This document shows positions 1 to 27,516 of a stretch of DNA of 64,000 bases, piece by piece. Source of the DNA: a virus; the IMG/VR virus record IMGVR_UViG_3300025727_000008, positions 14,573 to 78,572 of that record; one strand, 5' to 3'. The notes under the pieces were generated by a model, which did not search any database, had not been told where the DNA came from, and saw only the letters and a program-made list of their open reading frames with translations. Positions within the stretch are counted from its first letter, which is position 1. Each line of letters begins with the position of its first letter. A program made the translations under genes and the position numbers.

Positions 1-179
1 ACAGTATCTTCAATTAGTTTTTCCATTGCCTTTAAAAATGATTCACCGTGATATTGAAAGAAATCTTCAACATGATTTTCTTGTAAAGTTAAAAGGTTAT
101 TGATTGTTTTAAATTGGGTTTGCTGTTGCGCCCCCATTTGTGTTGATAAGTTACTATTACTCGTTCCAAATAACCCCAT
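1..179 (-). CDS. Hypothetical protein, partial (runs off the window), starts MGLFGTSNS
   Basis: Hand-translated open frame from ATG at 179 that overlaps the stop of the upstream ORF. Confidence 0.6.
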   Translation of the reverse strand, partial: MGLFGTSNSNLSTQMGAQQQTQFKTINNLLTLQENHVEDFFQYHGESFLKAMEKLIEDT

Positions 180-865
180 TACTCAACCACCTCTTCCGTA
201 ACAATTGCGACCTTAACGCCATCGGTTAATAGAGTTTTGACTCGCTCATTAATACTGTTAGTTTCTATTACTAATCTAAATAATTCTTCTTCTTTAGATT
301 CAATACCCATAGTAGGTGGTTTAATTGTCCAACCTAATGAAGATAATGATTGCATGTCTGTCTGTTTTAAACTAGTCAATGGGGCAGAAATTAAAGGGTT
401 TAACATTTTAGCAGAAGGAATATATGCACTAAAAGAAAGACCATGTTCTTCTGCTAACATTTGTTGTTCTAACATTTCATATTGCTTATGGATTGTTGCG
501 TGTTTATTACAATAAGTTCCCCTCATAGGATAGCCCCTTCTTACTTTATGTAATGGTAAAGGGGGGCGCATAGAATCTCCTGCTTCCCATATTTTTTGAG
601 AGCCACATACAACACATCTATCTTTAATATTATATTTAAATTTATATGGGAATTTAAGAAATGTTTTTTTCTCAGGCATTAAAACTTTAATTATTTCCTT
701 CAATTGTTTTTTGGGTTTTAAATTTTTATATTCATATTGCATTACTGACCCTGCTGCTCTCGCAGTACTAAAAGTATCTAAATATGGGTTTGAAGTAATA
801 TGTGCTGATTGTGCGCCTATTAAATTTGGGGGGTTGAAATTCATTGCCATGTGATATTCTCCCAT
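179..865 (-). CDS. Hypothetical protein with Zn-binding motif (CVVC...CNKH); likely start MAMNF at 850
   Basis: ORF track; Cys/His pattern; coupled to the GTPase gene. Confidence 0.6.
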   Translation of the reverse strand: MGEYHMAMNFNPPNLIGAQSAHITSNPYLDTFSTARAAGSVMQYEYKNLKPKKQLKEIIKVLMPEKKTFLKFPYKFKYNIKDRCVVCGSQKIWEAGDSMRPPLPLHKVRRGYPMRGTYCNKHATIHKQYEMLEQQMLAEEHGLSFSAYIPSAKMLNPLISAPLTSLKQTDMQSLSSLGWTIKPPTMGIESKEEELFRLVIETNSINERVKTLLTDGVKVAIVTEEVVE

Positions 866-1533
866 TAGTAATCCTTTATCATTGTTAGGATTCCCCTATA
901 TACCATTTCTGAATCTGATTTAGCACTTACTATGTATTTATAACAAGGTATTCCTTTATCATTTAACTTTTGCATACCATTTCTAAATGAGTCAAATATT
1001 GGATGTTTTTCAATAGATGTATAGTCATATTTATCTTTCCATAAATCATGTTTATTAGCCCATAATCCAACTGCAACAGGGTAATCATGTATTTTCTTTT
1101 TTTGTTTTTTTCCTTTGTGGTTCCAATAAGGAGTACAAATTGTATCAACTAAAAAAGTCCAACATAATTGTTGTTCTATATCATAATGTTTATCCATATG
1201 TCTATCATCAATCATAAAAATAATATATTTTACTTTTCTAGTTTTCATGTCTTGAACCCATTCATTCCAAAATACTGTTTCACCACCAACATCAGCAGTT
1301 TTAATGGTATGAGCATCACCATCTAATTTTACAAATTTTCTAGATGGTCGTTGTAATCCAACAGTTCTATCTGTAATAGCAGGGATTTCACCTCTAGTTC
1401 TTAATTGATGATGTAGAGTAGTTTTACCTACTTTACTTGCACCATATACTCCAAAAGGAATTGAATGTAATCTTTGATAGATTCTATTCATTCCTTCTAC
1501 AAATAAAATAGCGAAACCCGCCATCACCGACAT
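865..1533 (-). CDS. Ras/Arf-like small GTPase
   Basis: G1 GASKVGKTT, G2 Thr (RTVG), G3 DVGG, G4 NKHD, G5 SAK in correct order and spacing; hydrophobic N-terminal helix. Confidence 0.88.
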   Translation of the reverse strand: MSVMAGFAILFVEGMNRIYQRLHSIPFGVYGASKVGKTTLHHQLRTRGEIPAITDRTVGLQRPSRKFVKLDGDAHTIKTADVGGETVFWNEWVQDMKTRKVKYIIFMIDDRHMDKHYDIEQQLCWTFLVDTICTPYWNHKGKKQKKKIHDYPVAVGLWANKHDLWKDKYDYTSIEKHPIFDSFRNGMQKLNDKGIPCYKYIVSAKSDSEMVYRGILTMIKDY

Positions 1534-1539
1534 TATTAA

Positions 1540-1764
1540 TCACACCAAATGATGCCATAAATTAACAATCCCATTCCATGTAGAAGAATATAAATTATAC
1601 CCAAATAAAGGTATTGCATGACCTATCAAAAAACCTATTACTGTTGAGATTATACCCCATAACCAAAACCTCGCTCTAAGAAACCAAATATCAGCAGAGT
1701 GCGCTCTTTGCAAATCATATGCTAATGTGGATTCATCGAACCCCATTAGTATCTCAGATACCAT
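1540..1764 (-). CDS. Small membrane protein
   Basis: Hydrophobic segment FWLWGIISTVIGFLIGHAIPLFGY. Confidence 0.7.
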   Translation of the reverse strand: MVSEILMGFDESTLAYDLQRAHSADIWFLRARFWLWGIISTVIGFLIGHAIPLFGYNLYSSTWNGIVNLWHHLV

Positions 1765-1771
1765 TTAATCA

Positions 1772-2215
1772 CTACTCGTTAAATCCAGTTAAAAATGTAG
1801 GGTTTATTGTATTGCTATCAAATTGCGGTTGTTGGTTTTGTTGCATTGTAGGTAAGTTAGCATCTCCATACACCGGCTGACCGAAGGTTTGATTGAAACT
1901 TCTTAATGATTCTCTAACTCTCTTTCTATTATCTTCATCCCTTGCTTTTCTATTCCAATAAGAATCTATTTTTCTTTGTAGCAGGAAATCTTCTATTACA
2001 TCATTTAACATTAAATCAAATAGTGCTTTCAATAACATGATACCCCCTACTGTGCATATACCGAATAATACTGCATGGGAAAGTCCTGTGTATGGGAAAT
2101 CCATACCATATAAAGTATAGAAATAAATATTTGTTCCACTAATTGCACCAACAAATAGTATAGTCATTACTAGTCTTGTATCTGTATCAATACTAGGCAA
2201 ACACATCAACTCCAT
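1772..2215 (-). CDS. Two-TM membrane protein with Q-rich cytoplasmic tail
   Basis: Two hydrophobic segments followed by a charged helix; start codon uncertain. Confidence 0.7.
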   Translation of the reverse strand: MELMCLPSIDTDTRLVMTILFVGAISGTNIYFYTLYGMDFPYTGLSHAVLFGICTVGGIMLLKALFDLMLNDVIEDFLLQRKIDSYWNRKARDEDNRKRVRESLRSFNQTFGQPVYGDANLPTMQQNQQPQFDSNTINPTFLTGFNE

Positions 2216-2484
2216 GTGCAGGAATATGAGCCACCTGAACCGGATAGTATTGCAGTTATACCTGTTCCCATTGCTCTGTCGTGCATATCAAATTCAATAG
2301 TATTATTAGCAGTAAGAATTAATCTAGCAACTTCATCTGCTGAACCAACAGTAGTGTTATTATGGTCATATAATTTTAATGTTGCAGTTCCAGTAGAACA
2401 AAAATGAATGCTGGTCATTTTACATCTACCGTCATTCAATACTGCACTAGATGTTTTAACAGGACTACCTGCTGAAACCATCAC
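2206..2484 (-). CDS. Small beta-rich putative virion protein
   Basis: G/S/T-rich composition; downstream of the capsid gene. Confidence 0.5.
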   Translation of the reverse strand: MMVSAGSPVKTSSAVLNDGRCKMTSIHFCSTGTATLKLYDHNNTTVGSADEVARLILTANNTIEFDMHDRAMGTGITAILSGSGGSYSCTWS

Positions 2485-2894
2485 TTCACATCCTTAGTGG
2501 TTTTCTTCTTAGTAGTGGTTTTCTTAGCAACGGGTTTCTTTTCTTTTACTGTTTCTTTAGGGACAACAGTTTCAACCACTGCTTCAACCACTGCTTCAAC
2601 CTGCTTTTTAACAGGAGTTTTTACTTTCTTAGGAAATAATATATCATTAACATCGCCTTCTACACCTAAATGTCGTCGTATTGCTTTAATTCTATTTTCA
2701 GGTAAATTAGCAATATCCTTTTTATCATCAACTGTAAAGTCAACTTGGATTGCTTCATCTCCTAAATAAAGTGCTGCGATTCTAGCAGGTACTTCACAAG
2801 GGGTTTGTGCTGTAAGAGAATATATTTTTTCTCCAACCCCTCTAATTTCTAATGCGCCTTCAACTCTATGTGTTTTCAATCTTATTAATGCCAT
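2481..2894 (-). CDS. Hypothetical protein with K/T-rich C-terminal tail (start re-assigned to MALIRLK at 2894)
   Basis: GGTGA SD precedes ATG 2894; the track's longer N-terminus runs through a hairpin. Confidence 0.6.
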   Translation of the reverse strand: MALIRLKTHRVEGALEIRGVGEKIYSLTAQTPCEVPARIAALYLGDEAIQVDFTVDDKKDIANLPENRIKAIRRHLGVEGDVNDILFPKKVKTPVKKQVEAVVEAVVETVVPKETVKEKKPVAKKTTTKKKTTKDVK

Positions 2895-2915
2895 AATATC
2901 ACCATTTTTTAAAGG

Positions 2916-2957
2916 GTAGTAACCCCTACCCCGATGTTTCGGAGTAGAGGCTACTAC
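2916..2957 (-). terminator. Stable stem-loop after the major capsid gene (terminator or mRNA-stabilising hairpin)
   Basis: Minus-strand gtagtagcctctactccga-aaca-tcggggtaggggttactac, 19-bp stem with G-U pairs. Confidence 0.6.
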
Positions 2958-2985
2958 TTTACATTTCACTTATTATTTAAGTATC

Positions 2986-4389
2986 TCAAGCACTCTTTAG
3001 GTTGGTAATCTTACCTTGACCCTTGAAGAAGGAACAGCATGTTTCGCCCATTGTGCGATACATACCTTGATTTCCAAGTTTACCAACACCGAATGGATTT
3101 CCACTAGTAATTCCATCCTCAAAATACTGAGTAGGCTTCATTACAGATAACCAAAGATGGTCTGTATCAAGAATTAACATATCACTTAACCTGTTGCTTG
3201 TTGATTGACCAGTTGACGGCATATCTTTAGCAGGGATAATTGGTATGTCGTAGTAGGTTGCCACACGGAAACCTACTTCTTGACCCTTTACTCCACGAAC
3301 ACCATTATGGGAAGGAACTATTTCTTTCCTATCCATAAATCGCTCTTGTGATTGTAGTAAATCAGAAAGTTTCTGTATGGTATCATATCCAGTAATGATA
3401 ACTTTAGGATTACCACCGTTAGTGCGGATTCTACGAATCATATCATTAAGTATGCTTAGAGTTAAAACTCTACAATTACCTGATGTATAATCAGTACCGA
3501 AGTCAACTTCTGCGTCTAGGAAAGATGCAACACCTGTGTAAGTGTAAGCACCTGTTCCGCCGCTAGTATCAACAGTAACAGTTCTAGTTGAACCAAAGAT
3601 AGTAGTAGCATCAGCAAGTTGTGCTGCTGTACCATTATTTGTTTGGTTGTGATAGAATACGTCGTCATCAGCCATCTTTGCAAGTTCAGCAGCAGATGAT
3701 ATAATCTTCATTAGAGAAGTATAATTCTTCTCAATTCCAGTTGTACCGTTCTCTGAATACTTTTCAAGAGGCATAACTAACATCTTGCTTTGTACTTCAG
3801 CGTGTAACTTACCCATGTCTTCTCTAACGATAGCGCGAATATCTCCGACACCATCATCAATTGCAGCCATTTCCATTCCTAGTTCTGAGAACTCAAATAG
3901 ATGTGCAATAGTCTTAGGGCTAACATATAGTTTAGTATATTCAGGAGCGATTGCTCTGAATCCATCTGCACCACCTAATGCTGCGTTTTCTCCAACACCA
4001 CCAATTTGGTCTGCTCTAGGTGTTTCTGCCTGAGCAGAAGTCATTGCTGCTGTTACTGCATTAGTACCAGTTCCGAATGCTGCACTTGAACCACCAATAG
4101 GTCGGCTCTTTAGTACTCTCCAACCACTAGATGTGTAAGGTCGCTTTGCAAGCATTGCAAGAGGGTTAACTTCTTGGTTTAATACTGACCAAACTTTTTG
4201 TCCGTATAATAGGTTGTATAAATCTCCTAATCCTGCTGCACCGGTAAATGCATTAGCACTAGTATCGTGAGGTGTTCCAAATCCACCAACGACTCCACCT
4301 GCTTTAAGCAAAGCGTTGCCGCTACCAGTTCCACCATATCCGTATGTTGCTGCTTCTAAATCTTTCATTGTCTTAATATATCCACTCAT
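2986..4389 (-). CDS. Major capsid protein (HK97 fold)
   Basis: 467 aa, directly after protease/scaffold; C-terminal pattern typical of haloviral-type MCPs (VATYYDIPIIP..MLILDTDHL); high-expression codon bias. Confidence 0.85.
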   Translation of the reverse strand: MSGYIKTMKDLEAATYGYGGTGSGNALLKAGGVVGGFGTPHDTSANAFTGAAGLGDLYNLLYGQKVWSVLNQEVNPLAMLAKRPYTSSGWRVLKSRPIGGSSAAFGTGTNAVTAAMTSAQAETPRADQIGGVGENAALGGADGFRAIAPEYTKLYVSPKTIAHLFEFSELGMEMAAIDDGVGDIRAIVREDMGKLHAEVQSKMLVMPLEKYSENGTTGIEKNYTSLMKIISSAAELAKMADDDVFYHNQTNNGTAAQLADATTIFGSTRTVTVDTSGGTGAYTYTGVASFLDAEVDFGTDYTSGNCRVLTLSILNDMIRRIRTNGGNPKVIITGYDTIQKLSDLLQSQERFMDRKEIVPSHNGVRGVKGQEVGFRVATYYDIPIIPAKDMPSTGQSTSNRLSDMLILDTDHLWLSVMKPTQYFEDGITSGNPFGVGKLGNQGMYRTMGETCCSFFKGQGKITNLKSA

Positions 4390-4391
4390 AT

Positions 4392-5570
4392 TTAATCACC
4401 CCTCACTAGGTTGTGAACGTCATCCCAAGTCATAGATGCTGCTGCTTCTAAACTTGTAGGTATTCCTTCAGGTAGCGTCATAGACACTTCTGCGCTCTTG
4501 CGAATTGTTTCATTTTCTTTTGATAGAGATTTGCGTAGTAATACAAACTCTTCTTTTAGTGCTGCTACATCTGTTCGGGCATCGTATGATGCTGATTCAT
4601 GGTTTGCTTTCTTTACAGAAAGTTCTTCAGCAAGTCTAGATTCAAAAGTCTTGCTTAGATTATCATAAGCGTATTTTTCCATCTGTTCTGCTTTAAACTG
4701 CACATATGCCTTTTCAACATTCTCTGCGCTTAGGTTAAGAGTACTAAAATCAGAGTCATTTAGACCCTCACTCTTTAGTTCAGAAGGTGCTGCTGTTGGT
4801 TTACCGCCGCTAACAACTAATTCTCCTGCTTCATAATCTCTAGTTGTATCTTCATCTAGAGCCTTCAGTTCTTCCTCTTCTTCTTCAGAATCTCCCTTTT
4901 CCATTTCAGGTTCTTCTTCAGTGTCCATATACTGTTCATTCTTCGTTACTTCTTCATTTTCTTGCTCTCCGAGTCCGTTAACTTGTTTCATTAAGTCATT
5001 CAACTCTTCAAGTGCTTTTTCTAATTTTTCACTCATTGTTTTGTCCTCCATTTTTAAAATGTCGAATTTTGCTTCGGGATTAATACCCTTTTCGCAGATA
5101 GTTACTTCGTGTAACTCTAATCTGTCTATCTCATTGTATTCGCCAAACTCTTCTGATGTTCTTTGTTTCTTAGAAATCGCTTGACCCCCAATACTAAAAG
5201 AACGAAGTGTTCCCTTTCTAATACTTCTTGAAATTTCTTTTGCTTTTTCTATGTCCTCTCTTAACTTAATAACAACATAAAACCCTACATCATCTACACC
5301 GGTTTTATGTAAAGTTCCATTAGTATCACGATATTTTTCAATAACTTCTCCAACTTGCACATTAGAATGATTAGACATTACATTTCTATATTTCTTCTCA
5401 CCCATATATTTTACAACTGCTTCATCTAAAGCACTTAATGTAATTAAATCGTTTTGTTTATCTACTATTTCTATAGAAGCATATCCACCAATAACTAAAT
5501 TATCAGACTTAAGAATAGTAAATTCATGATGAGAATTTGCTTTCAACAAAAGTGTAGGCTGCATCAGCAT
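4392..5570 (-). CDS. Prohead protease fused to an acidic coiled-coil scaffold
   Basis: IGGYASIEIVDKQND, catalytic-type His (SNH), FSIGG, LHEVTICEKGINPEA motifs of the HK97 protease family; acidic C-terminal half. Confidence 0.88.
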   Translation of the reverse strand: MLMQPTLLLKANSHHEFTILKSDNLVIGGYASIEIVDKQNDLITLSALDEAVVKYMGEKKYRNVMSNHSNVQVGEVIEKYRDTNGTLHKTGVDDVGFYVVIKLREDIEKAKEISRSIRKGTLRSFSIGGQAISKKQRTSEEFGEYNEIDRLELHEVTICEKGINPEAKFDILKMEDKTMSEKLEKALEELNDLMKQVNGLGEQENEEVTKNEQYMDTEEEPEMEKGDSEEEEEELKALDEDTTRDYEAGELVVSGGKPTAAPSELKSEGLNDSDFSTLNLSAENVEKAYVQFKAEQMEKYAYDNLSKTFESRLAEELSVKKANHESASYDARTDVAALKEEFVLLRKSLSKENETIRKSAEVSMTLPEGIPTSLEAAASMTWDDVHNLVRGD

Positions 5571-5602
5571 TATTTTTTAATTTTTAACTTTTACTATATT
5601 AA

Positions 5603-8188
5603 CTAATCGCTATTTTTATTAGGAAATTTTAAATTACTATATTTATCCTCATTAATATTCCATATATTAACATCATCTTCATCCTTTAACATTGATTGTT
5701 TCTTACCTGTCCAAGCAATCCATGTTTTCTTTTCATTTATTGGAACAACTCTTAGATGTAGTCTAGTTTCAAACTTATCTCCTTCTAATTTATATTCATG
5801 ATAACCGTCTTTTTGAACACCTAATGTTACTATCCCCTTATCTATAATTTTACCTTCATTTATATTAGTTGCAACAATAGCAGGATATTTATTAGATTTA
5901 CCAAATAAATTATAAATATCATCAGTATCTTCAATATCTATTAACCATGCTAATCTTTTATTTTTATAATTAATTACAAAATTAATATTACCATCTTCTT
6001 GAAGAGAAATATTAAATTTTCCTTGTTTAGAATCTTCCTTATAGATTATATTTTCATCCACATCTTTTTCTAAAATTTCTTCATTAGAAAAGAATTTATT
6101 AGGATGTTTGTAAATGAATGAATCTTGTTTTTTCATCCAAGACATTAATTTAGATTCTACTGATTTAAATAAACTTTGGAATAAATCAGGGTATTCTTTC
6201 TTTACAAATAAAACTATTTTTTCAAATTCTAATTCATCATTTCCGCTATTTAATATTTCATTTCTTATAGATATTCTTAACTCAGAACGCTTACTTTTTA
6301 TTAATTGATTTAATTCTTCTTTCCACAAATCAATATTATGTAAAGCGTTTTTCTCCATTAAATTATCTCCTTCAAATCCATATAAAGTATAGCCTTCTAA
6401 ATTTTCTTTTAATATAATTTCAGCAGTTCCATGTATATCGTCTGTAATATAATATCCCTTTTTTAGTTTTTTAGGTTTTACTAAATCAGACTCTAAACCA
6501 CTCATAACTCTAAATGGTTTAGGAACAACTCCTGAAACTAAACCGCGTATAGCAGATAATGATTTTTTACTTTTAGATGCTAATTTTTCTAATGTTGCGA
6601 TATTATCAGATTGAGTAACTTCAGGAACTTCTATCACTTTAGCGGAATACAAACTAAAACCATTTTTATTTTTAGTAACTTCATCAACTTTAACTCTAAC
6701 AATACTACCAACATCTACATTGATTTTAGTGTTTAAAGCCTTACCAACTTCTAAATAATCCTTCCCTTCAAATTCAACAGTTGCATAATTTCTAGCAACT
6801 TCTGCTGTAACTGCACCTATACCCATTGTATAAGAATGTAAATTGCTTTTAGTTTTTCTATCTTTTAGAACTATCACATCTAAGTCAACAAATTTTTTCC
6901 ATTTAATCCATTTTGGATTTTTTCTATTTCCAATATAATAGGTAGATTCTATATCTTTAATAACTACTCCTTCAGAAGCAGGTAATTTCATAATATCTTT
7001 AGAATACTCTTCTACTTCTTTCTTAGAATCTGCAATACGAGTATCTTTTTTAGAAGGAAATGCTAAATTTTCAGAAGAGTGTTGAGCATATTGATATAAT
7101 AAAATATTAATTCTTTCTCTTAAAGGTTCTTCTGTTATTTCTTTTCCTTCATGTATCATAATATCAAAAACATGAGCCTTTAGTGTACCTTCAGTTTTTT
7201 TATGGAAAACATGAGTAATAGTGTCTGCTCGTTGTAATGGCTCATCATCTAAGAATAACATTAATTCTGCATCTAAGATACAATCACCAAACTGTTTCTT
7301 TTCCATATGTTTAACTTGTTCAGGGCATTTTAAAGTAATATCTTTTTGATTAAAAGAATAAATTTTAACTTTATTATCAAACTTATGAATTTGTATTCTC
7401 ATTCCATCATATTTTTCTTGAACTACAAATTCACCTGTTAAACCTTTAATATCATCTAAATCATCTATTTCAAATATCCTATACATTGGTTTATTTGGTT
7501 GAATAAAATCTATTCCTGCTTTTGTTATATCTAATTCTAATAATGAATCCCATTGTTCTTCATTATATTTTTCTAAATATATTTTTTCTAATTGTTTAAA
7601 TGCGTGTTTACATTTAGATTCTATTCTTCTAGTATCGTCATTTTCATCACCATAATGTTCAATAATATAAATAGGAACATCTTTAGGTTCTAAATCCAAA
7701 CCCATATATCCTTGAGTAATATTATCAGGTTGTAAATTATGTGCATTCCAAGATTTATCAGGAATAGGATTAGTATGAGAACGCACTGCATAATGAATAA
7801 ATGCTAATAACATAGATTCATTTTTCATAAATTCTTTGATTACATCATCACCTAATTGTTTTGAAAATGGGTCGCTTACTTTATCAGATTTGAACCTAAG
7901 ACTTTTAACACCTTCATAAATTTCTTTTGCTTGTCTAGATTCAGGGTCATATGCTTCTTCTGAAAAAACTATATCTTCTTTCAAATATTTTTTTAATTCT
8001 CTAGTAAAATCATCTAAAGAATCAAACTGATTTCTAACTTCCTTTACTGTTTTTCGCCACTTCTTGTTATAATCAGAAGGGTTTTCTTTAGCAGATAAAT
8101 AAGAATATCTGACTCTTTCAAAAAAATCCAATACTCGTTTAGTTAAAGTATCTTTTTCCTTTTCAAAAATAACCCCTGTTTGCGGCAT
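5603..8188 (-). CDS. Multi-domain ATP-dependent DNA ligase-like protein in the head module
   Basis: EKYDGMR (motif I), LDAEL, VFDIM, EGVVIK, WIKWK; OB domain; extra N- and C-terminal domains. Confidence 0.82.
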   Translation of the reverse strand: MPQTGVIFEKEKDTLTKRVLDFFERVRYSYLSAKENPSDYNKKWRKTVKEVRNQFDSLDDFTRELKKYLKEDIVFSEEAYDPESRQAKEIYEGVKSLRFKSDKVSDPFSKQLGDDVIKEFMKNESMLLAFIHYAVRSHTNPIPDKSWNAHNLQPDNITQGYMGLDLEPKDVPIYIIEHYGDENDDTRRIESKCKHAFKQLEKIYLEKYNEEQWDSLLELDITKAGIDFIQPNKPMYRIFEIDDLDDIKGLTGEFVVQEKYDGMRIQIHKFDNKVKIYSFNQKDITLKCPEQVKHMEKKQFGDCILDAELMLFLDDEPLQRADTITHVFHKKTEGTLKAHVFDIMIHEGKEITEEPLRERINILLYQYAQHSSENLAFPSKKDTRIADSKKEVEEYSKDIMKLPASEGVVIKDIESTYYIGNRKNPKWIKWKKFVDLDVIVLKDRKTKSNLHSYTMGIGAVTAEVARNYATVEFEGKDYLEVGKALNTKINVDVGSIVRVKVDEVTKNKNGFSLYSAKVIEVPEVTQSDNIATLEKLASKSKKSLSAIRGLVSGVVPKPFRVMSGLESDLVKPKKLKKGYYITDDIHGTAEIILKENLEGYTLYGFEGDNLMEKNALHNIDLWKEELNQLIKSKRSELRISIRNEILNSGNDELEFEKIVLFVKKEYPDLFQSLFKSVESKLMSWMKKQDSFIYKHPNKFFSNEEILEKDVDENIIYKEDSKQGKFNISLQEDGNINFVINYKNKRLAWLIDIEDTDDIYNLFGKSNKYPAIVATNINEGKIIDKGIVTLGVQKDGYHEYKLEGDKFETRLHLRVVPINEKKTWIAWTGKKQSMLKDEDDVNIWNINEDKYSNLKFPNKNSD

Positions 8189-8198
8189 AATACCTCAC

Positions 8199-8414
8199 TC
8201 AGTTAGATTTATTTTCTTTTCCTTCAATATTACTAGTTTGAGGCAATTTAACTTCTTTAGGATTTTCTTTAGGTTTCTCTACCTTAACTTCTTCACCTGT
8301 TAATGGTTCTTTAAGTTCTAAAGTTCCTAAATGTTTAGCCTCTTGAATTACTTCTTTGGCTTTTGCAATCGCTAGTTCTAATATTTTTTCTTCTCTTGTT
8401 ACTTTTTCCGGCAT
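8199..8414 (-). CDS. Small charged hypothetical protein (MPEKVTREE)
   Basis: GGGGTG SD upstream of the ATG near 8414. Confidence 0.55.
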   Translation of the reverse strand: MPEKVTREEKILELAIAKAKEVIQEAKHLGTLELKEPLTGEEVKVEKPKENPKEVKLPQTSNIEGKENKSN

Positions 8415-8419
8415 TTTAT

Positions 8420-8650
8420 TCACCCCATTGTATTTACTAATTCGTGTATATCTTCCCATTCCATACTCTTTTTTATTGGGCTGCCACTCATAGGAATATT
8501 TGTACTGTCCATCATTGGTGAAGGAGAATCTACCACTACTAATCCTGATTTCATAAGTAAGTTATCTTTATGATAAACTGCTTCTTCAAGATGTTTCACT
8601 TTACTTACTAATTCTTTTAATAATAATAACATTTCATTTTCTTCACTCAT
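8420..8650 (-). CDS. Small scaffold-like protein
   Basis: Coiled-coil N-terminus; C-terminus MEWEDIHELV resembles the protease-scaffold end MTWDDVHNLV. Confidence 0.55.
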   Translation of the reverse strand: MSEENEMLLLLKELVSKVKHLEEAVYHKDNLLMKSGLVVVDSPSPMMDSTNIPMSGSPIKKSMEWEDIHELVNTMG

Positions 8651-8722
8651 AAAAACCATTCCTTCGATATGCTGCCACTAGTTCTTCTGTTATTAATCTT
8701 TTAAGTTCTCTTTTCATATTCA

Positions 8723-9031
8723 TTATTTACCATCTCTCGGTTTATATATTTTAGTTCCTATATATTTCGGTTCAGGTAATGTAGGACTTAAAGGATGTTC
8801 AGTATTCATTAAACAACTCCCATTATCACTAATAGTTACTTCAGGTAAAGAACATTTTAAGTTTTTATTATGACCACATTTGGTAGCCTCACATTTTCTT
8901 ACTTTACAATCTGATGCAGTAGGTATAAACGCAGTTCCTTTTGGTATATATTTTGTTCCGCCACCTGCAATATCACTAATTCTAGAAGCCATTTCTGCAT
9001 CTTCATTCTTAACTATATCTTTCCAACTCAT
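8723..9031 (-). CDS. Leader-motif protein (MSWKDIVK) with DUF1540-like Cys cluster
   Basis: C.A..C.HN....C.....I....C pattern. Confidence 0.6.
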   Translation of the reverse strand: MSWKDIVKNEDAEMASRISDIAGGGTKYIPKGTAFIPTASDCKVRKCEATKCGHNKNLKCSLPEVTISDNGSCLMNTEHPLSPTLPEPKYIGTKIYKPRDGK

Positions 9032-9043
9032 TTAATCATCTCC

Positions 9044-9520
9044 TTAATATTCTGCACCATATTGGTTATCTACTTTAACAGGCAGCATTAGTCCATCACC
9101 CATTGGTTCTCCCCACATTTCATCATCCTTTAGTTTGTAATCTATATATGCTGGATGAACTTCACCCATTCCACCTGAAGGAGTTTGTCGCATATTGGTA
9201 TCTTTCTTACTATTCGTTTCTTCCTTATATTCATCAGATGTATCTACTAAGCCTTGAATTAAGTGAAGCAAAGCACTATTGTAGGATTCTTTAGCATGTT
9301 CTAACCTGTTAAATTTCTCATCAATATATTTAAAATCTTCTTCTGATAACTTTCCGTCTAATTTTGGAAATCGCTCATATGCTAAATGCTCAAAATCACC
9401 CCAATCTAATTTGGAAAAAGGCTCTATTTCCAAACTTTCTAATTCGTCTGCTATATCTTCTAATTCTTCCGCAATGCTACCTTTATCATTTATCTTTACT
9501 ATATCTTTCCACCAACTCAT
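9044..9520 (-). CDS. Leader-motif hypothetical protein (MSWWKDIVK)
   Basis: ORF track; GGTGA SD. Confidence 0.65.
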   Translation of the reverse strand: MSWWKDIVKINDKGSIAEELEDIADELESLEIEPFSKLDWGDFEHLAYERFPKLDGKLSEEDFKYIDEKFNRLEHAKESYNSALLHLIQGLVDTSDEYKEETNSKKDTNMRQTPSGGMGEVHPAYIDYKLKDDEMWGEPMGDGLMLPVKVDNQYGAEY

Positions 9521-9552
9521 TTAATCACCTTAATTTTGTCGTATCTGCAAAT

Positions 9553-9825
9553 TCAGGTGATTCTGCTGTACCACTCAATTTTCTCCTTTATTAGTATATC
9601 TTTTATTGTCTCGGCTTCCTTATCCCATTCAACATCTTCAGGATTTGTGTCGCCTTTTGCCAAATCCTCAAACAACCTTTGAATATATTTTAAACTTCCT
9701 AGTAAATTATTTACCCGCCCTCCAAGTTCACGAATTACGGCACTATCAGTTCCCTGTCGTAGGGTTTTATTATTAGGATTTCTCTTATCTGCGTCTTCTT
9801 TCTTTATTTCATCTTTCCAAGTCAT
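9553..9825 (-). CDS. Leader-motif hypothetical protein (MTWKDEIKK)
   Basis: ORF track; ATGA coupling. Confidence 0.65.
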   Translation of the reverse strand: MTWKDEIKKEDADKRNPNNKTLRQGTDSAVIRELGGRVNNLLGSLKYIQRLFEDLAKGDTNPEDVEWDKEAETIKDILIKEKIEWYSRIT

Positions 9826-10148
9826 TCTAAATCCCCCTTACTCTTAGGATAAACCATATCTCTTAATTGACGATATAGTGTTTCATAATCTTTTCTAAGT
9901 TCTGCTGCTGATGATACTATTTCTAAATTCCTTTCATCAAAGCCCTCAAACTTTTTTTGTAATTTTTTATCAGATTTAACTAAATCTAATTTACGCATTT
10001 CATCTAATAAATCAGATAAATGAGTCATCTCTTGACCCATATATTCAGTAGGTTGGGTTTTCTGTAAAAGTTTCTTAAGTTTCTTTTTTTGTTTAGGTTC
10101 AACTTTTTCTAAAATTGAAGTAGATTTAAGTATATTTTTCCAACTCAT
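9822..10148 (-). CDS. Leader-motif helical protein (MSWKNILK)
   Basis: ORF track. Confidence 0.7.
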   Translation of the reverse strand: MSWKNILKSTSILEKVEPKQKKKLKKLLQKTQPTEYMGQEMTHLSDLLDEMRKLDLVKSDKKLQKKFEGFDERNLEIVSSAAELRKDYETLYRQLRDMVYPKSKGDLE

Positions 10149-10185
10149 ATCTTACCCTTATCCATTCGCTTGTATGTATAGTTTA

Positions 10186-12174
10186 TCAATTTATGTTTTT
10201 AAGTTTAGAAATAATTAATTTTTCTAACCCGTTATTTTTCATAGATGTTACATATTCATTATAAATATCATCTAATTGCTTTTCAGTAGGGTTTGTTAAT
10301 TTACTTTGTTTTTCTTTTAGTGTTTTTATAAATTCCATATGTTGTATCTGCGCTGGTCTATTTAATTTTAAATCTCTAAGTGTATCAAACCATGAATCAG
10401 CCTCATCTTTCAAACTATCTATATTATCTCCTGTTTGGCTAGCATTTACATCTTTAATTTTCCTCTTCATGCGATGTGTTTCTTCTTTAGTATTATCAGG
10501 TAAATCTCCAAACCCTTCACCTAAAGCACCAGTACCATTAAATAAATTACTTAATTTTGTTAATTTCTTAACATATTTCTTTTTAAGTTCCTTAATTTTA
10601 TTTATGTTAGATTTGTTTTCCCGTTCTGTTATAGATGCGTCAACACGTTCTGTTAATTGTTCTATAGTTAATTTTTCACCTTTTTTACTATTTAAAGTAG
10701 TATCAAGCATATCTAAAATTTCTGTTTCTATTTCAATTATTTCTATATTTAACTTCTCTAGAAGAATATATTTTCCTTTAATTTTCAATGCAGATAAAAT
10801 ACCATTAAGTGCTTTTGATATTTTTTTCCTTTTACTAACTAATTCTTTAAAATTATCAATAATGGCTAAAGGCTCATTAGGTTTTGAATAACTAATACTA
10901 TCTTTGAAATCTTCAGTCATTTCATATCCATCATCATTAATATCTTTTACCCATTGTCGTTTTTGAGGTTTAACTTCTTTAGAGAGTTCGTATAGTTCTT
11001 TTATTGATACTCCGTCTAATGGAATGTCTGCATCTATTAGTGTTATTTCGTTTGATTTATCATTTAAATCTTTTATTGATTCATTTAAATCATCAATTCT
11101 AGATTGTTTCATAGGATTTTTAATTTCTACCATACAACTAATTATGAGTCTTAATATTTTTAAATTAGATTCAATTTCTAACATAAATTCTTTAAAATCA
11201 GGTTTATCCTTTTCAATATCAATACCATTATCACCTATTTCATCTTCTAATATTATTATTTTTTTTATTATTTCATATCCAATTAAATCATTATTTTTTT
11301 TAAAAAGAAGTGGTAAATGTTCATCTGCCTCTTTTATTAATTCAATATTATTTGATTCTATAGGTTCAATAAATTCTTCTATAAATTTAATAGTACTTTC
11401 ATAATCCATATCAAAATATTCAGTTAACAATTCTGTTGATTTATCACTTATATATTGATTATCAAATGTAATATCTAATTTATCAAATATAGCATATAAT
11501 ATTTTTTTGGATTTTATAAATCCGAAGTCTGTTATAATTTTAGAATATCTTTTAGGTATTTTTTCATTATTATTTAAATAACCATTTAATGATTCAGCAA
11601 GGCGTTTAATTAATTCATTTTCACTGTTAGTAGTAGTCTTTCCTGTATTTAATATTTTTTTAAACATTTCAAGGTCTTTATCTGATTTGTGTTTTTTAGG
11701 AATACCATAAATCTCTTTTAATCTAAAAATTAATCCACTTTTACGCTTTTTCTCTTCTAATAATAAGTTATATGCTTCAGGATATTTATCTTTAGTTATA
11801 TTTTTTTCAACATCATCTATTGCATTTTTAAGAATATTTAAAACTTTAAAATCATCTATTTTCCTTGTTCCTGTATCGTCTTTAGGAGTAGTAGTTTGTG
11901 TTTTTTCACCCTCTTCAAGTCGTTCCGTGTCTGTAAATGTTTTATGATGTATATATGTCCACTCACTATTATTAATATCATCCAAATTAAAAATATCTAA
12001 TTGAGGAACACCATCTAATTGATTATATTTATTTTTTACGTCTTTCATATCCCTAATTAAAGTCTTACTTTCCTTTAAATCCATCTCCCTATATTTACGC
12101 AAAATTTTTATTATGATTTCCGATAATGGTTTAAGTTTACGTTCTTTATTTTTTAAAATATCCATAAACGACAT
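10186..12174 (-). CDS. Large K/E/I-rich helical protein (MSFMDILK), candidate internal virion protein
   Basis: 662-aa ORF in the head module with a variant leader. Confidence 0.65.
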   Translation of the reverse strand: MSFMDILKNKERKLKPLSEIIIKILRKYREMDLKESKTLIRDMKDVKNKYNQLDGVPQLDIFNLDDINNSEWTYIHHKTFTDTERLEEGEKTQTTTPKDDTGTRKIDDFKVLNILKNAIDDVEKNITKDKYPEAYNLLLEEKKRKSGLIFRLKEIYGIPKKHKSDKDLEMFKKILNTGKTTTNSENELIKRLAESLNGYLNNNEKIPKRYSKIITDFGFIKSKKILYAIFDKLDITFDNQYISDKSTELLTEYFDMDYESTIKFIEEFIEPIESNNIELIKEADEHLPLLFKKNNDLIGYEIIKKIIILEDEIGDNGIDIEKDKPDFKEFMLEIESNLKILRLIISCMVEIKNPMKQSRIDDLNESIKDLNDKSNEITLIDADIPLDGVSIKELYELSKEVKPQKRQWVKDINDDGYEMTEDFKDSISYSKPNEPLAIIDNFKELVSKRKKISKALNGILSALKIKGKYILLEKLNIEIIEIETEILDMLDTTLNSKKGEKLTIEQLTERVDASITERENKSNINKIKELKKKYVKKLTKLSNLFNGTGALGEGFGDLPDNTKEETHRMKRKIKDVNASQTGDNIDSLKDEADSWFDTLRDLKLNRPAQIQHMEFIKTLKEKQSKLTNPTEKQLDDIYNEYVTSMKNNGLEKLIISKLKNIN

Positions 12175-12189
12175 TACTATTACCTCTGC

Positions 12190-12420
12190 TTAAAATGGGA
12201 TATTTTCACTACGCATATTTTTTCTTTTAGGAGTTATCATAACATCAGGTATGTTACTAGGGGCATCATCTGTTTTATTTTTTAATGTTGTAGATGGGTC
12301 TACACCAACTACCGCATAATCCTTACTAACAGTAACATTACTTCTCTGTTCCGAACCTTCCTTAATTCTTGCTTGCTTCAATTCTCTTTCTAATTGTCTT
12401 ACACTTTTTTCTTCACTCAT
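12190..12420 (-). CDS. Small hypothetical protein
   Basis: ORF directly after the portal gene. Confidence 0.6.
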   Translation of the reverse strand: MSEEKSVRQLERELKQARIKEGSEQRSNVTVSKDYAVVGVDPSTTLKNKTDDAPSNIPDVMITPKRKNMRSENIPF

Positions 12421-12421
12421 T

Positions 12422-14092
12422 TTATCCTACTCTCCTTTCTGTTCTTTTATCATTATTTTGATTACCAGCATCTTTAGGTAATCCTGTAAATCTTTTATCA
12501 GGGGCAACATTCATTCTAGGTTTGTTTCTCTTTTTAGGGGGTTCTGATTTTGCTTTTTCTGGAACACCCGCTTCTGCCAAACTAGGTTTATTACCCGCTT
12601 CCATCATTTGCCCTAATTGGCTTGCATCAACATCAGTTCCAGCATAAGGGTCAGGTTTGAAATCATCACCATCTGTTTGGGTTTTACCTTGTTCATCTCC
12701 TTCTACTGGTTCGGGTTTAGTATAAATAAATCCACCTTCATCATCCATTTCTACATCAAACCCTAAATTCTTTATTGAACCTGCAATATTAACTTCCATT
12801 TCTCTTAATCGAAGAACAGCAATTTCATCTTCTTCTTCAGAAGGTGGTAATTTTAATTCCCAATCAGTAATGCCAAATTCACTAGTCATAAAAGGAAATA
12901 CATAATTATTCCAAGTTGTTTGTGCCATCTCTACTGCGCGATTAGTAACAAGAATTTGCATACCTTCGTTATTTAACCCACCACTAGCAGAAGCATCATT
13001 CATAAACACTTTACTAACTCCATAGAACCCTGATATTCTATCTCTCAAATCATCTTTAACTGCAATATAATCCATTTCCTTAAGGCTGTCCATAAATCTA
13101 ACCCATTCAACAGAACCCTTACCACCTTCAGATTCTATTCCCATTACAGGTATGAAGTGTGGGTCTTGTTCCATCTTCTCTTTAACGCCACGCCAAAAAG
13201 ATTTCATTGAATCCATATTTCTAGTTTGAACAGCCAACAATCCCTTCGGCATTCTTGCCTTAGTATATGATGAATTTACATAATTATCCATTGCTATTAA
13301 GGTTGTAACATTATTCCATAATGTTATTATTGGCGACATACCATATAATCTAGAAGGAGAATATTTACTAAAATGTACTACTTCACCTTTAATGAAATAC
13401 TGTTCCTCTCCATTTACTCTATTAACATAATGAACAGGATATAATTCAGATGCACAAGTTTCACATAACTCAGTTTGATGACTATGTACTCTATCTCTAT
13501 GTCTTAAACAAATAAATCCACCTTTACCTCTTTCCCCTAATTCATTAGAATAAATATGCATAGTAACAGGGTCGCCTCTAAATATTTCTTTAATTTTATG
13601 CATTCTAATTTTTGAATTATTATCTAAATAATATTCTTTAACATTAACTAAATATGCATCATCCATAATATTCAAATCATCTTCTAATTCTTTTAATACA
13701 TCAATAAATAATTGTTCTGCACCATTAACATAACCATCTAAAAAATCTTTAGCATAACTTAATTGTTTAGGTTCAGGTTTAACTAAATTGGTAGAACCGC
13801 AATCAACACATTCCTTTACAGGAGTAGAATGTTCTTTATCACATTCTGCACACTTTTCTGTAAATTTTCCTTCCCATATATATCCCCGTCTAAATATTTC
13901 TTGTTTCAATTGAGTTATACAAGTTCGTACTATTGTTGATTGTTGAACTATATGATAAATTATAGGACTAGTTAACATATAGGAATTATCTCTTTCTTGT
14001 ATTCCTAAATTAAACACCGTTCTATCTGCGGGTTTAGGTGTAGTATTTCTAAACAAGTTAGTAAATGAAAACTTTCTTTTTTCTTCAACCAT
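12422..14092 (-). CDS. Portal protein with Zn-ribbon insertions
   Basis: Position between terminase and protease; EVVHFSKYSPSRLYGMSPI, MPKGLL and ISGFYGVSKVFM portal-type motifs. Confidence 0.85.
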   Translation of the reverse strand: MVEEKRKFSFTNLFRNTTPKPADRTVFNLGIQERDNSYMLTSPIIYHIVQQSTIVRTCITQLKQEIFRRGYIWEGKFTEKCAECDKEHSTPVKECVDCGSTNLVKPEPKQLSYAKDFLDGYVNGAEQLFIDVLKELEDDLNIMDDAYLVNVKEYYLDNNSKIRMHKIKEIFRGDPVTMHIYSNELGERGKGGFICLRHRDRVHSHQTELCETCASELYPVHYVNRVNGEEQYFIKGEVVHFSKYSPSRLYGMSPIITLWNNVTTLIAMDNYVNSSYTKARMPKGLLAVQTRNMDSMKSFWRGVKEKMEQDPHFIPVMGIESEGGKGSVEWVRFMDSLKEMDYIAVKDDLRDRISGFYGVSKVFMNDASASGGLNNEGMQILVTNRAVEMAQTTWNNYVFPFMTSEFGITDWELKLPPSEEEDEIAVLRLREMEVNIAGSIKNLGFDVEMDDEGGFIYTKPEPVEGDEQGKTQTDGDDFKPDPYAGTDVDASQLGQMMEAGNKPSLAEAGVPEKAKSEPPKKRNKPRMNVAPDKRFTGLPKDAGNQNNDKRTERRVG

Positions 14093-15429
14093 TAAGCAAC
14101 AACTCCTTCTAATCTATCCATTTCAAACATCTTACATTTATCATGTAATTTCGCTACCGTAGTAATATCTACCCCATCTTTAGAAAAATCATATCCTACA
14201 TGGTCTTTATGATTCTCATATTTCATTAATTGAAATAATTCTGTCTTTCTATTATTATACCAATCTTCTTTTTTATGTGATTTTTTCATTCGTATTAACT
14301 CCAATAAAATATCAGCATTAGACCCCTTCATTTTGAAGTGCGGTCTACACTTAGTTAGTATTTCAGTCACATCTGCTGCCGAATAAAAATTTAATCTATT
14401 AACTGGTCTAGTATCTTGTGGTGATTTTTGGTCTAAATGTAATCTCCCACATCCTAATGATTTATGCATTTCTAACATGAAAGCCTTACCTCTTTCACCT
14501 GTTGCAACTAATCCTACTCTTGGATTGAATTTTTTATCCATTGTTATGTAGCCATCAGAATCTATGAAAGCCGCAGTATATGCATAAATATCCTTTTTAA
14601 TATCATCACTAATTTTATACAAAGCACCGTTTACATTTGTAACATTACAAGATACTGCCATCTTTGAAATTATACTTGGAGTAGTTTTATTGAATAACGA
14701 TTTAGGTAATCGTTCATGTATTTGTCTTGCTGAAATACCAGCATCCTCACTAACAAGTTTAACTATGTTTTGCTTTATAATTTCTTTATCAAATCCCTTG
14801 TTAATAGATTTCATATGTTTCTTTATTAAATGTTTAAATTTTCTTTTGGTTGAAGTCATTTCCTTAGATAAATCACAATATTCTTGATTATATTTCATAT
14901 CTTTTAGTTCTAATTTTGCTTCCCAATATTTACATAATGTATCTACTAATTCTCTTCTAGTAGATTCATCTTGAACATATGATAATTTAATTAAATGTTC
15001 TTCACTGCAAGTCATATCTTTAACTACGGGTTTATATTTACTTATCCAATAAATATCATCTATACTTTTATCTAAATGATTAGAATAACCATCAATTAAA
15101 TTATCTATTGAATTTGATATTTTTATTTTATTATCCCCCTTTAAAGTTCTACGATATTTACGCATTTGTTTTATTAATTTAGGTATATCATTTCCTTCAA
15201 CTTCATATTTTTTTAATTTATAATTCAAATGTTTTTTAGCATCTGTTAATGATAATTTAAATTCTTTAGCAAAGATTTTCTCAAGTTGTGTATGGTCTGA
15301 TAAATTAGAATCAACTAACCAACTTCTTTTTAACTCATCAGTTATTCTTTTTTGTTCATCTTTAAGACGTTCTTCTTCATCAGCAAGTTCAGCCATTTCT
15401 CTCAAGTTTTCGCCTTTTTCACTAACCAT
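14092..15429 (-). CDS. LAGLIDADG homing-endonuclease-like protein with long helical N-terminus and HTH
   Basis: AYTAAFIDSDGYI motif, LGCGRL, ILTKCRPHFKMK. Confidence 0.75.
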   Translation of the reverse strand: MVSEKGENLREMAELADEEERLKDEQKRITDELKRSWLVDSNLSDHTQLEKIFAKEFKLSLTDAKKHLNYKLKKYEVEGNDIPKLIKQMRKYRRTLKGDNKIKISNSIDNLIDGYSNHLDKSIDDIYWISKYKPVVKDMTCSEEHLIKLSYVQDESTRRELVDTLCKYWEAKLELKDMKYNQEYCDLSKEMTSTKRKFKHLIKKHMKSINKGFDKEIIKQNIVKLVSEDAGISARQIHERLPKSLFNKTTPSIISKMAVSCNVTNVNGALYKISDDIKKDIYAYTAAFIDSDGYITMDKKFNPRVGLVATGERGKAFMLEMHKSLGCGRLHLDQKSPQDTRPVNRLNFYSAADVTEILTKCRPHFKMKGSNADILLELIRMKKSHKKEDWYNNRKTELFQLMKYENHKDHVGYDFSKDGVDITTVAKLHDKCKMFEMDRLEGVVA

Positions 15430-22500: not shown

Positions 22501-22631
22501 ATTAAATCACTACTTTCTAAAATAATTCTAATATCATTTATGGTTGGATTACCTTTCATTACTTTTATAATTTCATTTAGAGCGTCTGACCTTTTAGCCC
22601 CTATGTTTTTAATGGTATCTTCCCAACTCAT
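22497..22631 (-). CDS. 44-aa leader-motif peptide MSWEDTIKNIGAKRSD... (missing from the ORF track)
   Basis: Hand-translated; ATGA overlaps with neighbours at both ends. Confidence 0.7.
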   Translation of the reverse strand: MSWEDTIKNIGAKRSDALNEIIKVMKGNPTINDIRIILESSDLI

Positions 22632-24823: not shown

Positions 24824-25990
24824 TTAACATATTAATTCCCTCTTTAAAATATCTCGCCAATCATTAACTTCTACATCATTAGTTTTTTTAGTTTGAGATT
24901 TAACTTCCGGTTTATCAAATCTAATAGTAACAGTATTATGTTTCCTACCTGTTTTTGGTTCAGTAAACTTTCTATTATTTTCCTTCAATAATATTTTTGC
25001 CATCTGATTTGCTACCCCTCTAGTTAATTTAAAATATCCTCGTTTAAGTGTGAAAAATTCAGGTATTCCTAAATTATTCCTAACTCTATTTTGAAAATCT
25101 TTTCTTGTTGGCAATAAATGACTTTTACTCTCTATTTCTCGCATAACCTCGCCATATCGAAATGCACCATTTCTACCTGCCATATCAGGTTCAATATATT
25201 TACGAACTATTCTCTTAATACTATTAATTTCTAATGCTTTTTCAGCCCAACCTGTTTGTCCTTTTTTTCCTAATTTAATAGGATTATCTTTACTTATACC
25301 TACACCGTCTTTTAAGGCTTCAATACCTTCTTCTATGATTTCATGTAAACTTTTAGAACTTGTAATTTTAACCTCACCTTCTCTACCATACATAACTTGC
25401 CAAAAAGGTGGTTCGGCTACACCTTTAGAATAGTCATACCAAGATTCAGGACATGCCGGTGCAGGGTTTAAATCCCTTTTAGGGAATTTTTTCATTTTAA
25501 TTTTTCTTTTATTTTCATAATTTTTAGTACGATAGTGTCCATATACTTCTTCTTCATCTACAACTTTACCACTATCTTCATCTACTTCTTTATCGGTAAA
25601 AGAAATATTTCTAGGATTTAAAGGGTTTTGAGGGCTACTATAAGAATCCATTAAAAGTCTAACTTTATTTAATTTTATTATATCATCTATACCAATATCT
25701 TCTCCATCAACAATATTAGTAATAATTCCTATAATTTCAGAACCACCTTTACCACTAGTATAAGGTGAAGGGGATTTATCACCTTGTAATCTACCAATTA
25801 ATCCTTGTTGTTTAAACATCTGATAAAGACTAATATCATTTTCCATAAATAATGTTTCACCACTTATTTCTGATAACTGTTGTTGCCAATTATCAAACGA
25901 TTTTCCAAACATTTGGACATTAGCACCAGTTAATTTAACATCATTTTTTAAGATTATATTTGACGTTCTTTCTAGGTTTCTTTTTGCCAC
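24824..25990 (-). CDS. Hypothetical protein with C-terminal motif copy (DWRDILK)
   Basis: 388-aa ORF. Confidence 0.7.
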   Translation of the reverse strand: MAKRNLERTSNIILKNDVKLTGANVQMFGKSFDNWQQQLSEISGETLFMENDISLYQMFKQQGLIGRLQGDKSPSPYTSGKGGSEIIGIITNIVDGEDIGIDDIIKLNKVRLLMDSYSSPQNPLNPRNISFTDKEVDEDSGKVVDEEEVYGHYRTKNYENKRKIKMKKFPKRDLNPAPACPESWYDYSKGVAEPPFWQVMYGREGEVKITSSKSLHEIIEEGIEALKDGVGISKDNPIKLGKKGQTGWAEKALEINSIKRIVRKYIEPDMAGRNGAFRYGEVMREIESKSHLLPTRKDFQNRVRNNLGIPEFFTLKRGYFKLTRGVANQMAKILLKENNRKFTEPKTGRKHNTVTIRFDKPEVKSQTKKTNDVEVNDWRDILKRELIC

Positions 25991-27253: not shown

Positions 27254-27516
27254 TTTTTCCCACCTTCTAATATATTCCTACTAACTTGGCAACACAATCT
27301 AATCTTTTGTGTACTTTCTAAAAACCAAAAAGAATCCTTATCCCAATCAAATTTATTCTCAACATGATTACAAAGTTCTCTTCTTCCCATGTTTTGCAAA
27401 TCACCATCTATACTAACATCAAGAATATCACCTTTCGGATGCACTAACTTCTTATCTAACCAAACATAGGTACTACCCATGAATGCAATCAATTTTCTAA
27501 TTATCCATTGCTTCAT
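27250..27516 (-). CDS. Hypothetical protein
   Basis: ORF track; ATGA coupling. Confidence 0.6.
   Translation of the reverse strand: MKQWIIRKLIAFMGSTYVWLDKKLVHPKGDILDVSIDGDLQNMGRRELCNHVENKFDWDKDSFWFLESTQKIRLCCQVSRNILEGGKK

Follow-up and report, generated by a model that had tools for sequence, protein, structure and literature searches.

The 64,000-nucleotide window analysed here (IMG/VR record IMGVR_UViG_3300025727_000008, positions 14,573 to 78,572) comes from a magrovirus-like archaeal tailed virus. It carries a gene in which a prohead protease of the S78 family, with the assemblin fold, is fused in frame to a coiled-coil scaffold that ends in a Trp-containing tail. Taken together, the data favour the following explanation, to which we assign a probability of about 0.5: the fusion and a scaffold made from a nested start would both be produced, and the protease would cut after lysine at K173 between its own domain and the scaffold, at K29 of the major capsid protein (MCP), at K358 near the scaffold C-terminus, and at K8 of a short leader found on other head-module proteins. 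Unless stated otherwise, coordinates are those of the window, residues are those of the protease-scaffold protein, and a slash marks a proposed cut.

The protease-scaffold gene

4392-5570, minus strand: protease-scaffold fusion gene, 392 residues; PF04586 Peptidase_S78, PHROG head maturation protease
5055-5507, minus strand: protease domain, residues 22-172, delimited by the AlphaFold2 model and Foldseek
4395-4433, minus strand: M-T-W-D-D-V-H-N-L-V-R-G-D motif at the scaffold C-terminus
5045-5049, minus strand: GGAGG, a Shine-Dalgarno-like motif 8 nucleotides upstream of the ATG of M179 (5036-5034)
4392-5036, minus strand: nested in-frame scaffold open reading frame (ORF) from M179 to D392, 214 residues, with a conserved internal start

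Two sets of relatives were used for comparison. A scan of viral contigs with a 9-sequence alignment yielded 80 related loci (L002-L081) with 51-86% identity, the close relatives. An exhaustive search of 50%-identity representatives yielded 1,090 relatives, and 122 aligned rows with identity below 60% were examined as the distant set.

The protein matches PF04586 at residues 26-175 with 40.2 bits, the cut-off being 21. Two residues, H68 and S126, which from knowledge of the family we take to be the catalytic pair, are invariant in the 28 sequences of alignment A2, which extends to 23% identity, and at least 90% conserved in 134 sequences. The AlphaFold2 model, built from the 134-sequence alignment A4, has a mean confidence (pLDDT) of 79. 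Averaged over 10-residue blocks, pLDDT is 94-98 throughout residues 31-170 and 85 in the block 21-30; residues 1-20 are of low confidence, with residues 16-19 below 50. The last strand of the protease is formed by residues 168-171. It is followed by a helix (178-199), a disordered acidic stretch (200-280), two long helices (282-328 and 331-359), a weak linker and the C-terminal helices 374-378 and 382-391, which contain the Trp motif.

Foldseek retrieved, with probability 1.00, the proteases of Epstein-Barr virus, pseudorabies virus, human cytomegalovirus and varicella-zoster virus (1o6e, 4v07, 1nkk, 1vzv) and gp21 of phage T4 (5jbl). Both the model confidence and the Foldseek matches thus define an assemblin-like capsid protease fold. 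Sequence-profile searches of solved structures with alignments A1 and A2 yielded no protease match, only low-complexity ones.

Protease and scaffold form a single ORF in one reading frame and share the C-terminus. The C-terminal motif is kept down to approximately 25% identity, W382 is invariant, and a helix is predicted at 382-391; this is the probable capsid-binding tail of the scaffold.

The start of the nested ORF, M179-SEKLEKALEEL, is invariant among the close relatives (alignment A1), and two homologue representatives, P0131 and P0267, begin at the equivalent point. A Shine-Dalgarno-like 4-mer is situated 4-18 nucleotides upstream of the M179 equivalent in 27 of 28 distinct relatives, despite differing linker residues. 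The corresponding frequencies are 70% at gene starts and 18.5% at Met codons inside genes. Judging from these signals, the scaffold M179-D392 is probably also translated on its own, and most of the scaffold would probably be made separately, from the M179 start.

Lysine at the end of the protease fold

5052-5066, minus strand: FDILK/ME, residues 169-173 before the slash, at the end of the last protease strand; leading release-site candidate

K173 lies two residues past the last strand of the model. In the distant set this column contains Lys in 89% of the 116 homologues aligned there, and the two preceding positions, P3 and P2 of the proposed site, are hydrophobic in 99% and 100%, respectively. 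The column is approximately as conserved as the catalytic ones, and a variable linker starts right after it. Even the halovirus HVTV-1 has FGVVSK at the equivalent point. Out of 13 rows with another residue, eight carry Lys or Arg one position later.

The strongest single argument is provided by homologues with little or nothing behind the protease domain. Lys is found at this column in none of the five homologues having at most 15 residues after the domain, and in 107 of 115 with a longer extension (Fisher test, 7e-6, uncorrected for shared ancestry). The five short proteins have Tyr, Trp, Tyr, Asn or Gln. Since the lysine is lost where nothing follows the domain, K173 seems to matter for the downstream part and not for the fold itself.

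Major capsid protein

2986-4389, minus strand: MCP, 467 residues, HK97 fold; PF17236 SU10_MCP, phrog_24667
4303-4317, minus strand: NALLK/AGG, MCP residues 25-29 before the slash; candidate propeptide cleavage site

The MCP matches PF17236 with 42.9 bits (cut-off 24.1) and phrog_24667 at 2.4e-24. The nearest named relatives are the MCPs of the haloarchaeal siphoviruses HCTV-1, HVTV-1 and HCTV-5, with 23-30% identity. By these matches it is an HK97-fold capsid protein. The two full-length matches among these align from residue 59. In all 35 of 35 loci the N-terminus fits [N/x]-x-L-L-K-[ASQT]-[AGS]-G, in some of them with a conservative change such as V-L-K or M-L-K, and the Gly-rich residues preceding L-L-K vary freely.

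Lysines of the scaffold

4863-4865, minus strand: codon of K236 (ELK/ALDED), at the end of the variable acidic stretch; P2 and P3 not conserved as hydrophobic
4497-4511, minus strand: ETIRK, residues 354-358, K358 being 34 residues from the C-terminus; candidate maturation site

Conservation of six scaffold lysines was assessed in 37 distinct protease-scaffolds of close relatives, each site being compared to its neighbours:

K210 (VTK/N): 22%, neighbours 30%
K225 (MEK/G): 8%, neighbours 28%
K236 (ELK/A): 97%, neighbours 37%
K266 (ELK/S): 27%, neighbours 30%
K287 (VEK/A): 100%, neighbours 67%, inside a conserved helix
K358 (IRK/S): 100%, neighbours 40%

K236 and K358 stand out from neighbours that are poorly conserved. 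K358 stands at the end of the helix 331-359, immediately before the low-confidence linker, and distant homologues have hydrophobic-x-Lys-[Ser/Lys] aligned with it, approximately 30-45 residues before the C-terminus. On the other hand, K210, K225 and K266 are best read as ordinary lysines of a Lys-rich protein.

Leaders of head-module proteins

28191-28214, minus strand: MTWFDILK at the start of ORF 27513-28214, representing the approximately 15 ORFs with a leader at 8723-28999

About 15 unrelated head-module proteins of the window start with the consensus M-[ST]-W-x-[DE]-[IV]-[LI]-K. Its residues 4-8 in MTWFDILK are identical to FDILK at K173, as had been pointed out in the first-pass annotation. 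The 80 related loci contain 1,201 plus-strand ORFs, of which 111 begin with M-x-W; these yield 101 unique 14-mers. In these, position 6 is I, V or T, position 7 is L, I or V, position 8 is Lys in 84 cases (Arg in four), and position 9 is variable. In the minus-strand operon, leaders occur only upstream of the protease gene. The tail-gene block preceding the window (positions 1-14572 of the record), with ORFs of up to 1,244 residues, contains no leader-bearing ORF.

The codons for leader positions 6-8 vary synonymously in the related loci. Hence selection acts on the peptide, and a nucleotide-level explanation of the leader was rejected. A separate feature is seen at position 2, where 40 of 43 Ser codons are AGT, as compared to 23% of Ser codons overall (window 8723-28999 and loci L002-L081). 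Unlike the synonymously varying positions 6-8, ATGAGTTGG is conserved at the nucleotide level. The AGT preference may reflect shared ancestry or a signal in the start region.

Several ORFs, all on the minus strand, show further variants. The 44-residue ORF 22497-22631, starting with MSWEDTIK, is one more leader-bearing mini-gene. The 662-residue ORF 10186-12174, starting with MSFMDILK, has a second, internal copy, DSWFDTLR, at residues 593-600, near its C-terminal end. The 362-residue ORF 24824-25912 ends with NDWRDILKRELIC, that is, with a leader-like W-x-D-I-L-K (DWRDILK) five residues from the C-terminus, which suggests that the motif can act independently of position.

A profile of leader positions 4-8 was derived from the relatives' leaders only and applied to all 22,772 internal pentamers of the genome. 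FDILK ranked first, with a score equal to that of the best real leader, and FTILK (residues 17-21) ranked seventh. By chance, one 392-residue protein would contain two of the seven best pentamers with a probability of about 0.006.

The leader-bearing proteins also avoid the motif internally. We counted hydrophobic-hydrophobic-Lys in 92 unique leader-bearing proteins and in 983 other proteins of the related loci, skipping the first ten residues and correcting for the composition of each protein. The observed to expected ratio is 0.65 (bootstrap 0.50-0.79) in the former and 1.15 (1.11-1.20) in the latter, these intervals being too narrow as orthologues are not independent. For the mirror motif, Lys-hydrophobic-hydrophobic, the ratios are 0.98 and 1.04, and separate Lys runs were on this ground rejected as the cause of the depletion. 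When Lys is replaced by Glu, Arg, Asp, Asn or Gln in the pattern, leader-bearing proteins show no depletion. Restricting the count to this genome gives 0.77 and 1.13, a difference in the same direction that is not significant. Such orientation-specific depletion is expected of proteins that are enclosed together with a protease recognising the motif.

Lysine ahead of the protease fold

5508-5522, minus strand: FTILK/SD, residues 17-21 before the slash, just ahead of the protease fold

The lysine is kept in 36 of 37 close relatives. In the model, K21 is the last residue before the confidently folded domain, and FTILK lies outside any strand. In the subfamily sharing the motif, a pair of hydrophobic residues precedes the Lys, and 4-8 polar residues separate it from the first strand. 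In some homologues the motif stands at the junction to an N-terminal extension, which can reach 431 residues; in others it is only 9-14 residues from the N-terminus.

At first sight, the K21 column is 97% basic, with 49% Arg, as if Arg were tolerated at P1. Row-by-row inspection traced the Arg to another subfamily, in which a SPAEILTLSRAYP motif had been misaligned with this column, and this interpretation was rejected. Alignment A4 further includes a large S78 subfamily (e.g. P0145, P0147, P0160, P0164-P0167) whose N-terminal extensions of 60-165 residues are followed by a conserved SPAE[IL]LTL[SA]RA[YF]P motif. This motif is situated 25-35 residues ahead of the protease fold and may be the Arg-type equivalent of the one at K21.

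Proposed mechanism and alternatives

We suggest that the full-length fusion would carry the protease into the procapsid by means of its scaffold part. The scaffold tail and the leaders resembling it would probably bind the shell from inside, the N-terminal 29 residues of the MCP being a possible docking site. Inside the procapsid the protease would then cut after exposed lysines with a hydrophobic residue at P2 and/or P3. In the order of support, a cut at K173 would free the protease from the scaffold, one at K29 would remove a 29-residue propeptide from the MCP, one at K358 would detach the scaffold body from its capsid-bound tail, and one at K8 would remove the leaders. We put Lys-specific cleavage at one or more of the first three sites at even odds, and consider removal of the leaders at K8 somewhat doubtful. 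Still more tentative is a complete address-and-cut system, in which the leader M-S-W-x-D-I-L-K would load about 15 unrelated proteins by imitating the scaffold tail, and a single Lys-specific S78 protease would cut leader, scaffold link, scaffold tail and capsid propeptide at the same signal, releasing all shell-bound parts in one step.

Several observations weigh against cleavage at these sites. K173 could be retained for a structural contact with the linker, and, given the nested start, a cut there is not required for obtaining free scaffold. Where the K21 motif is 9-14 residues from the N-terminus, a cut would remove almost nothing. In the MCP, cluster representative P0312 has Asn in place of K29. 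Moreover, the MCP has six copies of the strict motif, with 2.2 expected, which, if they are exposed, argues against avoidance; were the motif a cut signal, the five copies beyond K29 would have to be buried in the fold. By the leader profile, NALLK ranks 764 and the six scaffold sites rank from 62 to 8,185, so they are unlike the leader, and the sameness of motif holds only for the two sites flanking the protease domain. Pentamers scoring like FTILK occur in replication proteins too, and hence the pentapeptide alone cannot suffice. The Trp motif is present without Lys in the scaffold tail and in ORF 8420-8659, so the leader may be mainly a binding element. Finally, neither association test, that of K173 with the extension or that of motif depletion, is corrected for shared ancestry.

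One alternative is that the conserved motifs are structural or binding elements and the protease cuts elsewhere, possibly not after Lys. FDILK would then be the last β-strand of the fold, FTILK a strand pairing with the first one, and the L-L-K of the MCP and I-L-K of the leaders docking helices or strands. Indeed, residues 168-171 are a predicted strand, and homologues without the lysine still have the hydrophobic pattern of FDIL. The short N-termini before the K21 motif and the Lys-free Trp motifs fit as well, as does DWRDILK in ORF 24824-25912, where a cut so close to the C-terminus would be pointless. Besides, specificities of capsid proteases differ, Glu being recognised in T4 and Lys in HK97. 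However, this explanation leaves aside the loss of Lys at position 173 exactly where there is nothing downstream to release, and binding alone hardly accounts for an orientation-specific depletion or for K8 of the leader being as conserved as W3. We regard it as possible but unlikely on balance.

The next alternative is that the whole pattern is a compositional accident, picked by eye in an AT-rich, Lys-rich genome, and it bears on the claim, made in the first-pass annotation, that one hydrophobic-hydrophobic-Lys motif recurs throughout the protease, scaffold and capsid protein as a maturation cleavage code. All strings quoted there are indeed present (K21, K173, K210, K225, K236, K266, K287 and K358 of the protease-scaffold, K29 of the MCP). 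Three of the nine, K21, K173 and K29, fit the motif as worded; each of the six scaffold sites has a hydrophobic residue at P2 or P3, never at both. Strict matches that had not been listed are K10, K54, K102 and K195 in the protease-scaffold and K6, K94, K228, K418 and K456 in the MCP. The protease-scaffold has 36 lysines (9.2% of residues), of which six satisfy the strict rule and 27 the loose one. In the proteome, out of 2,171 lysines 278 (12.8%) are strict matches and 59% are loose ones, which also speaks against a code. Compared to shuffled sequences, strict matches number six versus 3.0 expected in the protease-scaffold (P=0.065, not significant) and six versus 2.2 in the MCP (P=0.014), and both counts are near the proteome-wide rate. 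Since so many lysines fit, neither rule can separate a site from an ordinary lysine.

The same division is seen with position and conservation. The motif was said to mark domain boundaries; in the model this is true of K21, K173 and K358, whereas the rest are in the disordered acidic stretch (K210, K225, K236, K266) or inside helices, and the unlisted K54, K102 and K195 are inside secondary-structure elements. Conservation, proposed as a check, is observed for K173, K29, K358 and K236, and the lack of it at K210, K225 and K266 among close relatives is a further point against a general code. Thus a code restricted to three or four conserved sites is plausible, and the remainder of the list is chance in a Lys-rich protein. 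For K173, K29 and K358 chance is refuted by their conservation, K173 in homologues with less than 60% identity and K29, allowing for conservative variants of its motif, in every locus; for K210, K225 and K266 it stands. The leader-profile ranks of FDILK and FTILK and the depletion in leader-bearing proteins are likewise hard to ascribe to composition, and as an account of the whole pattern chance is improbable.

That the leader lysine is a modification or recognition site and not a scissile residue, e.g. for conjugation by a ubiquitin-like system, is very improbable: the near invariance of Lys 8 is the only observation in its favour, while the leader pentapeptide also closes the protease domain, even in relatives as remote as HVTV-1, and the avoidance of the motif in leader-bearing proteins points to a protease.

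The virus

Of the viruses infecting archaea of the surface ocean, magroviruses belong to the most abundant. To our knowledge, none has been cultured, and hence their assembly is known from sequence alone. The window is AT-rich (about 30% GC), with the head module on the minus strand, from position 1 to approximately 29,000, and the replication module on the plus strand. The protease has thousands of marine metagenomic relatives, situated on contigs of 80-106 kb. The structural module of magroviruses resembles that of haloviruses (PMC5434244). The assignment of the window to magrovirus-like viruses is based on the fact that the marine relatives of the protease and the halovirus-like capsid protein fit this published description. 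We found no mention of leaders, motifs or cleavage in that description, and no N-terminal cleavage data for the halovirus relatives in the ChaoS9 paper or in the 2021 survey of archaeal viruses.

If the proposed explanation is true, an archaeal virus with an S78 enzyme would join the viruses that combine a head-protease motif with a loading leader, and the tag-and-trim logic of T4 would extend to archaeal viruses, served there by a protease of another family. From a defined cut signal and a loading leader one could predict the proteins inside the particle, the mature form of the MCP and the exit of the scaffold from the shell. Phages already provide the principle, and the practical value is modest.

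Comparison with known systems

In HK97, the capsid protein gp5 is cut at K103/S104 (PMC10275583), so the first-pass annotation was correct in stating that the HK97 protease cleaves its capsid precursor after Lys. The enzyme described here belongs to the same family as HK97 gp4 (PF04586, MEROPS S78), with a score above the curated cut-off and conserved His and Ser. Its gene is directly upstream of an HK97-fold capsid gene, and the proposed P1 lysines are followed by a small residue (K29/A, K358/S, K21/S). The scaffold of HK97 is the N-terminal delta domain of the capsid protein, whereas here it is fused to the protease, and the MCP has a short N-terminal extension of approximately 57 residues. 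At that, the specificity was measured for HK97 and is deduced for the present enzyme.

Phage T4 offers a parallel to the leaders. Its protease gp21 cuts at I/L-x-E, after Glu (PMC12991175), and its internal proteins share a capsid-targeting sequence (PMC3012670). Phage P1 DarB has an N-terminal packaging signal. As in T4, a short N-terminal leader is present on unrelated proteins and ends in the proposed P1 residue, and the same motif recurs in head-assembly proteins. By contrast, the T4 enzyme is from another family and has Glu at P1, and its leader is directed to a separate scaffolding core, whereas the present one resembles the C-terminal tail of the scaffold itself. Packaging of the internal proteins IPI-III and removal of their leader are proven in T4; for the present leaders both are predictions.

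Nested protease-scaffold genes are known in phages lambda (C/Nu3) and Mu (I/Z), lambda gpC being a protease of family S49. In lambda, as proposed here, the scaffold is produced from an internal in-frame start within the protease gene and shares its C-terminus. The protease family sets gpC apart.

The closest counterpart in architecture is the herpesvirus pair UL26/UL26.5, an assemblin precursor with a nested scaffold gene and with release and maturation sites of the Ala/Ser type. Shared features are the N-terminal protease of the same fold, as found by Foldseek, the in-frame C-terminal scaffold, the internal scaffold start and the conserved C-terminal tail. By conservation and position in the model, K173 would be the candidate counterpart of the release site; the maturation site would have its candidate counterpart in K358, some 34 residues before the C-terminus. 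The differences are the candidate Lys sites in place of Ala/Ser, the identity to herpesvirus enzymes of 9-14%, and the nature of the internal start, which here would be a ribosome-binding site within one transcript and not a separate promoter.

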